Positions 42,940-55,791 of a stretch of 55,791 bases of DNA are shown in pieces. This DNA comes from a virus (taxonomy: Duplodnaviria; Caudoviricetes). The DNA lies in the IMG/VR virus record IMGVR_UViG_3300047476_001434, positions 1 through 55,791 of that record. One strand, 5' to 3'. A program made the translations under genes and the position numbers. How positions within the stretch are numbered: position 1 is the first letter of the stretch; every line of letters begins with the position of its first letter. Below the pieces are notes generated by a model that saw nothing but the letters and a program-made list of their open reading frames with translations, ran no database searches and had not been told where the DNA came from.

Positions 42940-45783
42940 ATGGCGAGTCAAAATATAAATCAATATGTAAGGCAAAATCTATTCCCAAAACTTTCTTTGG
43001 ATACTCACGACATGTCCTTAACATCTGATGAATTGGATTTTAACCAAGAGGTGGTTTTTTCACCTTATTTAATCGCACAAACATATGGGGATAAGCTACC
43101 CATTAATATAGATATTAATAATACCGAAACAGTACAAAACTTAGTTTTAACTTATAAAAATTATAACACCAACAATATTTTTGTTTCTCAAAATTATTAT
43201 AACCCTGATAAAAAAGATTTAAATTGTTTTACCGCAGAAACCTCGTGTGATATTGGACTTACAGGTATTGATAACGGACTTGTTAATAAAATGACAGGGG
43301 AAACAATAACATTTACAAATGGGTTATTACCCGACAGTTCAAAGTTTGATAGGTTAAGTTTTGATAGAAGATTTAAAATGTTCCAAGTAACGGGTTATAC
43401 TAACACACCTAATGTAAGATTTTCAGGTTTTCAAAATACTGTTTTATATGAAGTTGTTAGTAAAAGCAACCCTCAAGTTGGTAGATACCATGAATTATAT
43501 GGTGGTTTCTATCAAGGGTTTTATAAATTACACGGATACGACTACGACATTTTTCCTGAAAGAATGAATAAGGGTTGGTCAGTTGAGGTGATTTTAAAAC
43601 CTAGATTATTTAACGAGTACGTGCCAGGACCTGGTGAAACAAATTTAAATTTAATATATCCTAATAATAAAAATACGTTTTTTTATTTTGGTACAAGAGC
43701 GGAAAATAAATTTTATCATCACGCTGACGGTACACCAAATTGTTTTACAGGTTATACTAGAGTTACTACACCTCTAACGGGTTTAAGTACTTGTGCTTGT
43801 TGTAACACGGTAATTAAAAATAGTAGATGTATATACGTTTATCCTCCTAGGTCTAAAGATGGTAAACATGACCCACATGTAAACTATGGTTGTGATAAAT
43901 GTGGAGGACTTAAAAACATACAACTTTCATGCGGATGCGGTTGCGATAAACCTCAATGTGAAAATTGTGGATGGGAATGTCAGACGCACGATTGTCCTCC
44001 GATTCCATCACCAACACCTACACCAACCCCAACACCTACACCGACAGGAAATGGTTGTATTGTAACACCAACATGTACCCCGACGTGTACAACATGCGAT
44101 GATTGTTCGGATTGTTTAGATTGTAAAACTACAGGGTTTACCTCTATAGAAGATACTTGTGAAAAAGACCCTTTATACGATTCTATGTCAAACGCGTTTT
44201 CATTAAGATTATGTGGTGACCCAAAAAACCCACAAATTGGTGTTAGAGTTTTAAGGTTTACTGGCGACTGTACAACCACGGGTAATTGTGAAACAAGTGG
44301 TACGTCATATACCACGGGTTATACTATAACCGATATCTGTACTCCCCCAATATACCCAAGATGTGAAAAAGAAAATCCTGCGTGGTTAGAGGAAGAACAT
44401 TGGTTCCAAGTGAATGTTGTATGGGAAAGATATACATGGTTGGATTATTGTGATTTAAAATACAGGGGAGGGTTAGGAGATATAACAAAACAAGTTTATT
44501 TAGAGTCCTTGGCAAATAACTCAACATCTTTAATCACAGTACCATACACCCACCCAAATTCAAAAGTCGCGGAAAAAATTGACCTTGTTAATTTAAATGA
44601 AAAATGGTTGATTGAGGGTAATATGAGAAAGGGTAGATTAAAAATTTTTATAAATGGTAAAATATTCTACACTATTGAAGATTTTGAAGAATTGATTCCG
44701 AGAGCATTAAATACTGATAAAGAACGACAAATCGGAGTTCCATTTAATATTTCTTGGGGAGGAGGAACACAAGGTCTTAGAGAGAACCTAACATTTTCAT
44801 CAACAACATTACCTTATGGACCTTATATTCAGGACCCTGAATGTTTTCCTGTAAACGACTTAACAGGTACAACATTTAATGGTTTAAAAACTAATATTTT
44901 AATTGAACAGAATTTTGCGGGTACTTTTGATGGTGGAATATCTCAATTTAGAATGTATGTAGAGCCTTTGTCGGCACCTGAAGTTAAACACAATTTTAAC
45001 TTATTGGTTGGTAAATTTGACATGTTTAATCCCGATTGCCCTGATTGTTCGACAATAGTTTGTAAACCTGACGATATAACTTACATCATAAGTGGAGAAT
45101 CGACTACAACAACTACCACATTAAATGACATTTTACCATTAGGTAGGGTTTATGTTGAAGATAGTAGAGATAAAAACTACTTAATTGAGAATAAATTATC
45201 TTTAGGGTTTACTACATTAAAGTATAAATATTGGGAATCAAATGAGTGGAATGGGAATCAAGGAAATACCCCACAGTGTGTAGGTTACGCTTGGTCTCAT
45301 TGGATTGAGGATGGTCCAGTAAAACATGGAGGGGTACCACCAATTGTAAACCCAACTACAATATATAGGGAAGCTCAAAAAATAGATGAATGGGTGGGTG
45401 AAAATTATGACGGAACATCAGTTAGAGCGGCCGCAAAATATCTTAAAAATACAAACAAAATTAAGGCTTATTTGTGGACTTACGATATTAATGTTTTAAT
45501 AACCACTGTTTTGACTAAAGGACCCGTAGTTGTTGGTACAAATTGGTATTCATCGATGAGTTATCCTGATAAAAATGGTTTAATAAAAACTACAGGTAGA
45601 ATTGTTGGTGGACATGCTTATGTAATAAATGGGGTTGATACTATTAAAAAACAATTTAGAATAAAAAATAGTTGGGGTACGTCTTGGGGTAAAAACGGTC
45701 ATGCGTTTATATCGTTTAACGATATGAATAGATTAATAAAACAGAACGGTGAAGTTTGTTTGGCCGTTGAAAATAATTTTTAA
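42940..45783 (+). CDS. Large Cys-rich protein with a PT linker, a LamG-like segment and a C-terminal papain-like (C1) protease
   Basis: FDGGISQFRMYVEPLSAPEVKHNF (LamG-type end); QGNTPQCVGYA, GGHAYVING, IKNSWGTSWGKNG (Cys-His-Asn triad). Confidence 0.78.
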   Translation: MASQNINQYVRQNLFPKLSLDTHDMSLTSDELDFNQEVVFSPYLIAQTYGDKLPINIDINNTETVQNLVLTYKNYNTNNIFVSQNYYNPDKKDLNCFTAETSCDIGLTGIDNGLVNKMTGETITFTNGLLPDSSKFDRLSFDRRFKMFQVTGYTNTPNVRFSGFQNTVLYEVVSKSNPQVGRYHELYGGFYQGFYKLHGYDYDIFPERMNKGWSVEVILKPRLFNEYVPGPGETNLNLIYPNNKNTFFYFGTRAENKFYHHADGTPNCFTGYTRVTTPLTGLSTCACCNTVIKNSRCIYVYPPRSKDGKHDPHVNYGCDKCGGLKNIQLSCGCGCDKPQCENCGWECQTHDCPPIPSPTPTPTPTPTPTGNGCIVTPTCTPTCTTCDDCSDCLDCKTTGFTSIEDTCEKDPLYDSMSNAFSLRLCGDPKNPQIGVRVLRFTGDCTTTGNCETSGTSYTTGYTITDICTPPIYPRCEKENPAWLEEEHWFQVNVVWERYTWLDYCDLKYRGGLGDITKQVYLESLANNSTSLITVPYTHPNSKVAEKIDLVNLNEKWLIEGNMRKGRLKIFINGKIFYTIEDFEELIPRALNTDKERQIGVPFNISWGGGTQGLRENLTFSSTTLPYGPYIQDPECFPVNDLTGTTFNGLKTNILIEQNFAGTFDGGISQFRMYVEPLSAPEVKHNFNLLVGKFDMFNPDCPDCSTIVCKPDDITYIISGESTTTTTTLNDILPLGRVYVEDSRDKNYLIENKLSLGFTTLKYKYWESNEWNGNQGNTPQCVGYAWSHWIEDGPVKHGGVPPIVNPTTIYREAQKIDEWVGENYDGTSVRAAAKYLKNTNKIKAYLWTYDINVLITTVLTKGPVVVGTNWYSSMSYPDKNGLIKTTGRIVGGHAYVINGVDTIKKQFRIKNSWGTSWGKNGHAFISFNDMNRLIKQNGEVCLAVENNF

Positions 45784-45786
45784 TTA

Positions 45787-54392: not shown

Positions 54393-55791
54393 TAACAGAT
54401 TTATTCGATAAGGGAGTACATCATATAGGTAAAACTATGAAAGATGTGGTAACCATTAATATAGGTGCAATGGACGGAGTTTTATTTGATGAATTATACG
54501 GATACTCCAATATGTATGATTTTACGGGTCTATACGTAGAACCTGTTCCATATCTATTTGAACGTTTAAAAAACAATTTAGGACCTAAACATATTTACGA
54601 AAATTCGGTTATTTCGGACCATGATGGATATGTTGATATGATTACAATTGATAGAGACGCTATTGATAATAAATTAGTTCATGAATGTTTTTATGGAATG
54701 AGTGCGGTTTATCCACCAAAAAATGGTTTGGGTAGTGAGTTTGATAAACCGACAGTTGAAAAATACGGGAGAATGATAACAGTCCCTTGTATCAGTTTGT
54801 CCACATTATTTAATAAACACAACATAAACAAGTTTGAAATTTTCAAAGTGGATGCCGAAGGGTACGATTTTAAAATAATTAATCAGTTAGATTTAAGTAA
54901 ATTCAAACCAAAAGTTATTAGATGTGAATGGATTAATTTATCTGACGATGAAAAAGAAACATTAACTAATCGATTAACCGAATTTGGTTATGTTTATGAA
55001 GTTTTACATGGTGATATTACCGCAATTAGTGATGATTTATATAAGTCATTAGAAGAACAGTTAGGGATTAAAAAAGTTAATAAAGTTACCATTGTGACAG
55101 GATTGTGGGATATTGGTAGAGGTAATTTAAGTGACGGATGGTCTAGAACCTACAACCAATATATCGAAAGGTTTGAGAAAATATTATCCATAAAAGAAAA
55201 TATGATAATCTATGGCGACCATGAATTGGAAACTATTGTGTTTAAGCATAGAACCCAAGAAAATACCCAATTTATTAGGAGGGATACCAATTGGTTTAAA
55301 TACAATGAATTCTACAATTTAATACAAGACATACGAACAAATCCTGAATGGTCTAATCAAGCACCTTGGTTGGGAGATTCCACACAAGCGAAATTAGAGA
55401 TGTACAACCCATTAGTCATGTCAAAAATGTTTTTATTAAACGACGCTAGAATAATGGATAAATTTAATTCGGAATATCTTTTTTGGATTGATGCTGGTAT
55501 AACTAATACTGTTCATTCGGGATATTTTACACATGATAATGTTTTTGATAAGATACCAAATATCTGTAACAAATTTATGTTTTTAACTTTTCCATATAAT
55601 GCAGTTAATGAGATTCATGGTTTTAATTACAAAAAATTGTGTGAATATTCAGAAAGTGAAAATGTTAATAAAGTAGGTCGTGGCGGCTTCTTTGGTGGAC
55701 CTAAAGAAACAATTTCAGAGACAAATAATATCTACTATCAATTATTAATAGATACCTTAACCAAAGGTTATATGGGTACTGAGGAAAGTAT
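54389..55791 (+). CDS. FkbM methyltransferase fused to an HtrL-like domain (3'-truncated; absent from the ORF track)
   Basis: Manual translation: INIGAMDGV, YVEPVP, FKVDAEGYD; then VTIVTGLWDIGRG, FWIDAG, GGFFGG, MGTEES; ATGA overlap with the upstream gene. Confidence 0.82.
   Translation, partial: MITDLFDKGVHHIGKTMKDVVTINIGAMDGVLFDELYGYSNMYDFTGLYVEPVPYLFERLKNNLGPKHIYENSVISDHDGYVDMITIDRDAIDNKLVHECFYGMSAVYPPKNGLGSEFDKPTVEKYGRMITVPCISLSTLFNKHNINKFEIFKVDAEGYDFKIINQLDLSKFKPKVIRCEWINLSDDEKETLTNRLTEFGYVYEVLHGDITAISDDLYKSLEEQLGIKKVNKVTIVTGLWDIGRGNLSDGWSRTYNQYIERFEKILSIKENMIIYGDHELETIVFKHRTQENTQFIRRDTNWFKYNEFYNLIQDIRTNPEWSNQAPWLGDSTQAKLEMYNPLVMSKMFLLNDARIMDKFNSEYLFWIDAGITNTVHSGYFTHDNVFDKIPNICNKFMFLTFPYNAVNEIHGFNYKKLCEYSESENVNKVGRGGFFGGPKETISETNNIYYQLLIDTLTKGYMGTEES

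Follow-up and report, generated by a model that had tools for sequence, protein, structure and literature searches.

A candidate cytoplasmic protein O-glycosylation cassette beside Thr/Pro-repeat genes in an uncultured T4-like phage

The IMG/VR virus record IMGVR_UViG_3300047476_001434 (Duplodnaviria; Caudoviricetes) is a whole viral contig of 55.8 kb, which is analysed here over its full length of 55,791 nucleotides (the window). At its right end, between positions 42940 and 55791, seven co-directional genes are found on the + strand (Table 1): three genes for modular proteins with Thr/Pro (TP) stretches, termed A, B and C, are followed by genes for a GT60-type glycosyltransferase (hereafter the transferase), an O-carbamoyltransferase and two proteins related to the HtrL family. 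The positions and order of these genes are as described in the original prediction, an earlier reading of this DNA, and so is the tight packing of the last four, the spacings of which are +3, -4 and -4 nucleotides. The seven genes are considered here as a probable cassette for cytoplasmic O-glycosylation of the TP tracts of the phage's own large proteins.

Table 1. Features of the locus and of comparable bacterial loci (window positions unless a locus is named; aa, amino acids; nt, nucleotides)
Feature	Position	Strand	Basis or description
Gene A, 947-aa modular protein	42940..45783	+	Cys-rich N-terminal ~730 aa, Pro/Thr linker, C-terminal papain-type (C1) peptidase
Gene B, 238 aa, candidate acceptor	45787..46503	+	70-aa N-terminal domain, then ~154 aa of TP-rich repeat
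Gene C, 1366 aa, main candidate acceptor	46521..50621	+	N-terminal domain, two short TP linkers, (TPTx)n tract, C-terminal domain
GT60-type (PF11397) soluble glycosyltransferase, predicted initiating polypeptide Thr/Ser N-acetylhexosamine (HexNAc) transferase	50680..51927	+	Pfam, phrog, motif
O-carbamoyltransferase of the NodU/TobZ/NovN class, predicted optional glycan tailoring	51931..53508	+	PF02543 + PF16861
Remote HtrL-like protein, 295 aa, probable GT-A-fold glycosyltransferase	53505..54392	+	hhalign
FkbM methyltransferase-HtrL fusion, open at the contig end	54389..55791	+	Pfam
TATTTAT motif, candidate late-promoter element	42922..42928	+	18 nt before the ATG of gene A
Two overlapping TATTTAT motifs	50634..50644	+	42-46 nt before the ATG of the transferase
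VgrG with TP/TEPP/EPTP tail near GT60	L152, L158, L178, L130, L160, L146		Burkholderiales

Contigs from an independent run, X4, span the junction between the transferase and carbamoyltransferase genes (record 11, 51585-53156) and the junction between the carbamoyltransferase and HtrL-like genes (record 14, 53462-53740), and the gene order is identical in a related locus, L016. Thus, the arrangement is not an assembly artefact. The contigs of another run, X2, leave 52000-53330 in the carbamoyltransferase gene uncovered, with no contig crossing it, and are uninformative either way. Neither a transmembrane helix nor a signal peptide is found in any of the seven proteins (maximum KD19 below 1.6, and 1.13 for A), and the enzymes and the candidate acceptors would therefore share the cytoplasm. 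A further glycosyltransferase gene (38981-40201; phrog_7162, 2.2e-46, with a weak GT-B match in Pfam) lies on the opposite strand 2.7 kb upstream, and is kept in relatives, with 76.6% identity in G002, a complete relative of 321 kb.

A, B and C had been taken together as three consecutive Thr/Pro-repeat proteins. This description suits B and C and does not suit A, in which Thr and Pro make up 16% of the residues and a single Pro/Thr linker of 22 residues (DCPPIPSPTPTPTPTPTPTGNG, residues 351-372) is found. The C-terminal part of A belongs to the papain-type peptidases (PF00112, 26.5 bits against a cut-off of 20.7; phrog_16701, 3e-53). Its N-terminal 730 residues or so have no match by tblastn in 50,697 phage records, and an Atlas search with them gives only viral hypothetical clusters and a weak lead to LamG. 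B, with a Thr plus Pro content of 45% and a TP-rich run of 154 residues, has no Pfam family, and a homologue of its N-terminal domain is found in 18 of the 80 related viral loci described below. C is the most extensive repeat protein, containing 472 Thr, 218 Pro, 160 TPT triplets and a TP-rich run of 965 residues; a 200-residue Cys-containing domain stands on the C-terminal side of its (TPTx)n tract of about 900 residues. The underlying DNA repeats are imperfect (66-100% matches), which argues for conservation of the tract at the protein level and against fresh slippage as its source. The N-terminal domain of C has a homologue upstream of the transferase in 48 of the 80 loci, while C as a whole has no Pfam family and its C-terminal domain has no usable match in the Atlas search. 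No structural family of Pfam or PHROG is matched by A, B or C. A shared N-terminal domain of B and C was also considered and was dropped (BLASTP E 1.2). Outside 42940-55791, the sole TP-rich run of the window is one of 31 residues in a small open reading frame (ORF) after the head genes (18856-19284, + strand).

The transferase was expected from the original prediction to be GT60-like with a DSH motif, and a profile search of 50680-51927 bears this out: it matches PF11397 ('GlcNAc') at 1.4e-72 with 245.6 bits, far above the cut-off of 21, and phrog_24687 at 2.9e-169. The DSH motif corresponds to D92-S93-H94. Among 40 homologues of 36-50% identity, D92, H94 and H229 never vary and S93 hardly does, and H229 presumably serves as a ligand. 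In GT60, the DxH metal-binding motif replaces DxD (PMC7185993), and the family is a sister of GT27, the animal mucin initiators (PMC8724618, PMC7185993). The ATG at 50680 is favoured as the start over the TTG at 50644, since homologues begin with M..IFVQIASYRD. A conserved C-terminal extension of about 120 residues continues beyond the Pfam model. No NCBIfam model matches the transferase, and phmmer against the PDB sequences finds no solved relative. The family is large, with 4,630 clusters at 50% identity in prokaryotes and viruses (E<=1e-3), and 7,526 homologous proteins are found in public metagenomes at E<=1e-5, the top 120 being 83-86% identical to the window enzyme. From its family, the enzyme is predicted to transfer alpha-linked N-acetylglucosamine (alpha-GlcNAc) to Thr/Ser, and it is genomic association that would connect it with TP tracts.

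This association is first seen in viral relatives. Pattern searching of IMG/VR gave 291 matches, 284 of which encode relatives; the best 80 were examined, in all of which the transferase is retained at 74-87% identity. A TP-rich ORF is present in 76 of the 80 loci, with run lengths from about 30 to 1,265 residues. In 66 of the 80 loci (55 of the 66 that have at least 2 kb of upstream sequence), the transferase is preceded on the same strand by a TP ORF whose end lies less than 1.5 kb away, so that the proposed co-occurrence of GT60 with TP-repeat genes in related phages is found to exist. Another TP ORF stands just past the last HtrL gene in 38 of the 62 loci with room for it. G002 has 15 TP-rich ORFs, eight of which lie at 29-57 kb, upstream of the transferase at 63 kb. 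In the same region (G002 41302-50249; L092:1302-10249), two giant TP-linker proteins carry reprolysin-type (M12) metallopeptidase domains. Together with the papain-type domain of A, they seem to make proteases on Thr/Pro stalks a recurring theme.

The linkage of GT60 with TP-repeat genes also holds beyond phages, in unrelated bacteria. When prokaryotic genomes, one for each species, were scanned with guidance from a profile, at least 563 relatives of the transferase were found, and 80 were kept. Counts of Ser/Thr/Pro ORFs are noisy in GC-rich bacterial loci, where they come from stop-to-stop frames, and runs of at least 100 residues and the DNA pattern coding for TPTPTPTP were therefore relied on. 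A Ser/Thr/Pro run of at least 100 residues lies within 2.6 kb of GT60 in 12 of 47 full-flank loci from bacteria and metagenome-assembled genomes (MAGs), and at 3-6 kb in six more. TPTPTPTP-coding DNA occurs at about 23 places in 45.7 Mb (10 genomes), seven of them inside 17-kb GT60 loci; in three genomes (G007, G008 and G015), the gene adjoining GT60 has the sole TPTPTPTP tract of the genome. A small TP-repeat protein adjoins GT60 in bins of Gemmatimonadota, Vicinamibacterales, Deltaproteobacteria, OM60-clade Gammaproteobacteria, Alphaproteobacteria, Caulobacterales and Acidimicrobiaceae. Some of these neighbours have a twin-arginine-like leader (a weak match) and a C-terminal anchor. An operon of a Congregibacter MAG (L157:4819-11492, + strand) is bordered by unrelated genes and consists of genes for such a TP-repeat protein, with twin-arginine-like leader and C-terminal anchor, a 250-residue protein, a tandem HtrL protein, GT60, a 229-residue protein and a second GT60. 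In Burkholderiales, VgrG homologues lie 1-6 kb from GT60 in nine loci, and six of these have C-terminal TP/TEPP/EPTP tails (Table 1). One of them (L152:10270-13131, - strand), with a C-terminal (TP)n tail of about 115 residues, scores 1e-120 to 1e-173 against solved VgrG chains. Such tails may be glycosylated spike extensions of the type VI apparatus. As a separate observation, the TP-repeat neighbour in Gemmatimonadota (L121:7314-7952, + strand; also L118 and L120) begins with a PqqD-like (peptide-chaperone/RRE-type) domain, for which the NCBIfam matches are weak and below cut-off.

The last two genes of the window concern HtrL. The HtrL-like label given to the 295-residue protein is remote but defensible: it has no Pfam match even at E<=1, it aligns with the HtrL domain profile in hhalign (probability 85%, E 5.8e-6, 233 columns), and a structure predicted from its single sequence is unusable (predicted local distance difference test (pLDDT) 34.9). 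The terminal gene is a fusion as proposed, both of its domains being above the Pfam cut-offs: FkbM (PF05050) scores 61.7 bits against 22.7 (TIGR01444, 40.5 against 37.7) and HtrL_YibB (PF09612) 55.3 against 24.1, with TIGR02192 under its equivalog cut-off. Full-length relatives of 776-816 residues run on into a second GT-A domain, before which the window copy ends. A partner enzyme of 555-590 residues, composed of an HtrL domain and about 300 further C-terminal residues, accompanies GT60 in 76 of the 80 viral loci and in many bacterial ones. A model of this partner from a relative (L052:5029-6702; alignment of 38 sequences, pLDDT 92.4) resembles in residues 1-267 the GT6 retaining blood-group transferases (Z 13, root-mean-square deviation 3.4-3.6, 193-195 residues aligned) and in residues 288-552 B4GALNT1, GnT-I and POMGNT1 (Z 14-15). 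Foldseek with the whole chain finds LH3, Mimivirus R699, LARGE1, K4CP, PmHS2 and COLGALT1 (E 3e-12 to 5e-7). D138 in WIDxG and E382-D383-D384 are invariant in the alignment, and these motifs fit the active sites. As modelled, the partner is a tandem two-domain GT-A glycosyltransferase. Since its domains match GT-A enzymes, HtrL/YibB, which is listed as uncharacterised (PMC4172580), is a GT-A-fold domain.

The interval from GT60 to the last HtrL gene is hypervariable, the 366 ORFs of 76 loci falling into 61 clusters. When 20 cluster representatives were scanned, 13 matched a family and seven none; the families are GT34, GT25, GT10, GT2, GT7C, PLOD-GT, FkbM and other methyltransferases, an epimerase and a HAD plus NTP-transferase protein. 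This strain-level variability resembles that of O-antigen loci, and raises the possibility that the cassette alters lipopolysaccharide (LPS), capsule or another envelope glycan of the host, with the TP genes as mere neighbours; the envelope change might, for example, block superinfection or the release of progeny onto debris. In a comparative review of jumbo phages, variable glycosyltransferase clusters are interpreted in this way, as modifying outer or capsular polysaccharides (PMC7824862). HtrL_YibB is found in lipooligosaccharide and LPS loci of Acinetobacter, E. coli, Salmonella and Campylobacter (PMC4172580), and GT25, like the GT9 of the cultured Xanthomonas jumbo phage XacN1, is an LPS-type family; both facts speak for an envelope target rather than a protein one. 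On the other hand, no flippase, polymerase, ligase, lipid-carrier transferase or membrane protein is found among the 20 representatives (the 41 other clusters being unscanned) or the window genes, and the constant first enzyme belongs to a family that acts on polypeptides in all tested members. The pairing with TP tracts also recurs in compact bacterial operons that lack polysaccharide genes, and beside VgrG tails. Remodelling of the host surface thus seems unlikely.

The carbamoyltransferase was assigned to the right family in the original prediction (PF02543, 80.5 bits; PF16861, 214.7 bits). It is an optional accessory and not a core part of the system, being found in one of the 80 close relatives. 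It also occurs in L107, L109, L110, L114 and L116, loci binned into MAGs, and in XacN1/RAS14. Its score against the NodU equivalog NF041651 is 169.9 bits, where the cut-off is 1000, and it is a member of the family and not an orthologue of NodU. Its nearest solved relatives are 7xb6, NovN, GdmN and TobZ, which carbamoylate sugars or antibiotic scaffolds. A phage carbamoyltransferase that turns 5-hydroxymethylcytosine (5hmC) into 5-carbamoyloxymethylcytosine in DNA has, however, been described (PMC8670742), and the cassette might accordingly make this base, or glycosylated hydroxymethylated bases, for evasion of restriction. The XacN1 module lies within about 5 kb of genes for DNA polymerase and RNase H, and the window is a genome fragment, so that a hydroxymethylase could lie elsewhere. 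Nevertheless, in the same report, DNA carbamoyltransferases co-occur with thymidylate-synthase homologues, and those on unmodified contigs are flanked by glycosyltransferases (PMC8670742), as is the one here. A thymidylate-synthase homologue (PF00303) is absent from the window, which covers about 19% of the genome, and in three of three near-complete relatives the thymidylate synthase gene stands well away from the cassette, at a distance of about 177 kb from the transferase. The homologue of G002, the one that was scored against solved structures, fits true thymidylate synthases best (2.4e-77). The absence of the carbamoyltransferase from 79 of the 80 relatives would be odd for a genome-wide DNA mark. 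DNA hypermodification is therefore very improbable, and both it and host-surface remodelling are less likely than protein glycosylation.

In the reading that we favour, with moderate confidence, the phage glycosylates the Thr/Pro tracts of large modular proteins that it encodes itself, and does so in the cytoplasm. A, B and C would be made late in the infected cell without signal peptides. The soluble GT60-type enzyme, with its DSH metal site, would attach the first HexNAc, probably alpha-GlcNAc from host uridine diphosphate-GlcNAc, to Thr of the TPTx tracts, and further sugars would be added by the HtrL-type GT-A enzymes, namely the 295-residue protein and the terminal FkbM-HtrL-GT-A protein. 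Tailoring of the glycan might follow in the window strain, with O-carbamoylation by the TobZ/NodU-class enzyme and O-methylation by the FkbM domain. The expected products are stiff, protease-resistant and strain-specific bottle-brush stalks, which would serve to hold or to space out the domains attached to them (a papain-type peptidase in the window, a reprolysin-type one in the relative), most likely on the particle. The analysis shows which genes are present, their families, the conserved catalytic motifs, the fold of the partner enzyme, the synteny, the repeated GT60/TP-tract pairing in unrelated genomes and the solubility of the proteins; we infer the acceptor, the sugars, the order of the steps, the targets of the carbamoyl and methyl groups, late expression and virion location.

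Several points weigh against this proposal. The 80 viral loci are close kin, and their synteny counts as one arrangement and not as 66 events; a TP ORF directly upstream is absent in 14 of them. The TP-rich ORFs of G002 also occur far from the transferase (137-152 kb, 311-321 kb and, at the start of the record, 2-568), and TP linkers are therefore a general habit of the large proteins of this phage. The sample of ten bacterial GT60 genomes was not a blind one, since in seven of them a TP ORF close to GT60 was known beforehand; two of the ten have no TPTPTPTP tract, and G014 has about six, none of them near GT60. Literature searches turned up no bacterial or phage GT60 member with a tested acceptor, and the virion glycoproteins of XacN1, to which we return below, are not identified in the accessible main text of its report (PMC5852040). 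Outside their repeats, A and C have no relatives by tblastn among the phage records searched, and since their non-repeat domains lack relatives in cultured phages, nothing ties A and C to the particle. As for late expression, the 8-mer TATTTATA is not over-represented overall, with 11 occurrences found against 14.3 expected.

Some of these points suit another reading, in which the enzymes modify phage or host proteins beyond A-C, such as those of the capsid or tail tube in the manner of mycobacteriophages, or make a free or small-molecule glycoside, and adjacency to TP genes reflects only the layout of the late region. The scattered TP ORFs of G002, the 14 loci with no upstream TP ORF and the bacterial GT60 genomes that lack a TP tract are compatible with this, and so are carbamoyltransferases of the TobZ, NovN and GdmN class, which act on small molecules. 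Without a functional link, however, it is hard to explain a TP adjacency that is independent of lineage and includes sole tracts in genomes of 2.8-4.1 Mb, and we consider other targets improbable. Glycosylation of the TP tracts themselves thus remains the preferred reading.

With regard to promoters, the motif TATTTAT, which precedes gene A (Table 1), also occurs 11-39 nucleotides ahead of the terminase gene, the prohead protease gene and several other gene starts. It had been said to be lacking before the glycosyltransferase cluster; this is incorrect, as two overlapping copies precede the transferase. Its placement, not its frequency, is suggestive of a late-promoter element. Scans for sigma-70 promoters (40 promoter-like sites against 60.9 expected) and for terminators (3 terminator-like sites against 8.2 expected, none between genes on the + strand) are uninformative.

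The window is best explained as part of the genome of an uncultured T4-like jumbo phage that is abundant and comes from fresh water. Its estimated completeness is 19%, T4-type head genes (terminase, portal, prohead protease and major head protein) are present, and near-complete relatives are 272-322 kb long. The closest cultured relatives of the head protein are those of Flavobacterium and Microcystis myoviruses, beside that of a 484-kb uncultured phage. Sequencing runs that contain at least half of the sampled words of the window are freshwater metagenomes. The best matches in genome bins are MAG contigs of Saprospiraceae, Chitinophagia, Lewinellaceae and Cytophagaceae (59-81% identity), which is only a hint of a Bacteroidota host. 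Two other features of the clade were noted. A 766-residue protein of the window (42-2342, + strand) combines an N-terminal domain (phrog_36119) with an M23-type peptidase and endolysin/chitinase-like domains. The thymidylate synthase gene is interrupted in some relatives (L088/L089, G001 5332-7607; L086; L087): a gap of about 1 kb in G001, and of about 120 nucleotides in G003 and G004, separates the parts of its profile match and points to an intron, an intein or an insertion.

We know of few cases in which a phage glycosylates its own proteins, and of none with a mucin-type initiator or kilobase-long acceptor tracts. What the window adds is a variant of the cassette that bears a carbamoyltransferase, together with the tandem GT-A nature of the HtrL partner. 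We propose only tentatively, as one idea whose parts stand together and which may well prove wrong, that GT60 and the HtrL tandem transferase constitute a widespread undescribed prokaryotic 'mucin-type' O-glycosylation system, the cytoplasmic targets of which would be Thr/Pro tracts destined for display outside the cell as phage fibres or decorations, type VI spike tails or small anchored TP proteins. According to this proposal, the glycan of the phage would be diversified by the hypervariable cassette in an O-antigen-like manner, although on protein, so that every strain has a coat of its own (in the window strain, a carbamoylated and methylated one), and the eukaryotic GT60/GT27 mucin initiators would originate in such prokaryotic or viral systems. 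If the cassette of the window works as proposed, an extremely abundant clade of freshwater jumbo phages is partly covered by dense strain-specific glycans, with a bearing on adsorption, protease resistance, grazing and immune-type recognition. Bacterial GT60 enzymes and the HtrL/YibB family, long an orphan, would gain a first function through their link to TP tracts, which include type VI spike tails. The system would also be an easily testable prokaryotic model of mucin-type glycosylation, and its enzymes might be useful for glyco-engineering of PT linkers in E. coli.

Literature searches found no earlier account of GT60 combined with TP-repeat genes in phages. The broader statement of the original prediction that nothing of the kind had been described in phages is too strong, because XacN1, reported in 2018, has at least two virion glycoproteins which, according to the accessible part of that paper, are attributed to its glycosyltransferases (PMC5852040). 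In the same part, the glycosyltransferase family is not named and no link to PT tracts is made (PMC5852040). XacN1 ORF334 is 48% identical to the window transferase. As in the window, the module ORF330-334 combines a GT60 homologue, a carbamoyltransferase and an HtrL protein, the last two being separated in XacN1 by two ORFs that have no Pfam family, and it lies near baseplate genes and adjacent to a giant PT-linker protein of 3313 residues. The PT linkers of XacN1 are only 20-32 residues long with no kilobase-scale repeat, its carbamoyltransferase has 765 residues, and its module is convergent with the structural genes, whereas the window cassette is co-directional. The phage 5hmC carbamoyltransferase is likewise phage-encoded and shares the two-domain superfamily with the window gene, although it is accompanied by a thymidylate-synthase homologue, deaminases and a pyrophosphohydrolase (PMC8670742). 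The window gene, in contrast, is sporadic and stands in a glycosyltransferase context.

Among eukaryotes, the polypeptide alpha-GlcNAc-transferases of GT60/PF11397 are those of protists such as Dictyostelium and Trypanosoma cruzi. They share with the window enzyme the Pfam family, the DxH motif and downstream His, the lack of a ricin-type lectin domain and Thr(/Pro)-rich acceptors, which in the window are candidates. The protist enzymes are Golgi membrane proteins, whereas the window enzyme is predicted to be soluble and cytoplasmic and has its C-terminal extension of about 120 residues. Nothing in the protist pathway corresponds to its partners, the HtrL tandem GT-A enzyme and the carbamoyl- and methyltransferases. 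Tandem GT-A enzymes are known elsewhere: LARGE1, K4CP, PmHS2, LH3/COLGALT1 and Mimivirus R699 have two GT-A domains per chain as the partner enzyme would. LARGE1 acts on the mucin domain of dystroglycan, and LH3, COLGALT1 and R699 act on hydroxylysine of the collagen type. The partner is 8-15% identical to these and differs in domain order and family (HtrL/GT6-like plus GT2/GT13-like).

Mycobacteriophages reportedly encode glycosyltransferases that glycosylate virion proteins, in the C-terminal parts of capsid and tail-tube subunits. These are phage-encoded cytoplasmic enzymes acting on the phage's own structural proteins, as is proposed here, but the glycosyltransferase families and the acceptors are different, and repeat tracts, GT60 and carbamoyl or methyl tailoring are not known from them. 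The staphylococcal SdgA and SdgB are said to O-glycosylate the Ser-Asp repeats of adhesins. They belong to another glycosyltransferase family, the repeat is SD and not TP, and the system is bacterial and not viral; in common with the cassette proposed here, soluble glycosyltransferases are encoded beside repeat proteins, and GlcNAc is placed in the cytoplasm on long low-complexity tracts, which are thereby protected.

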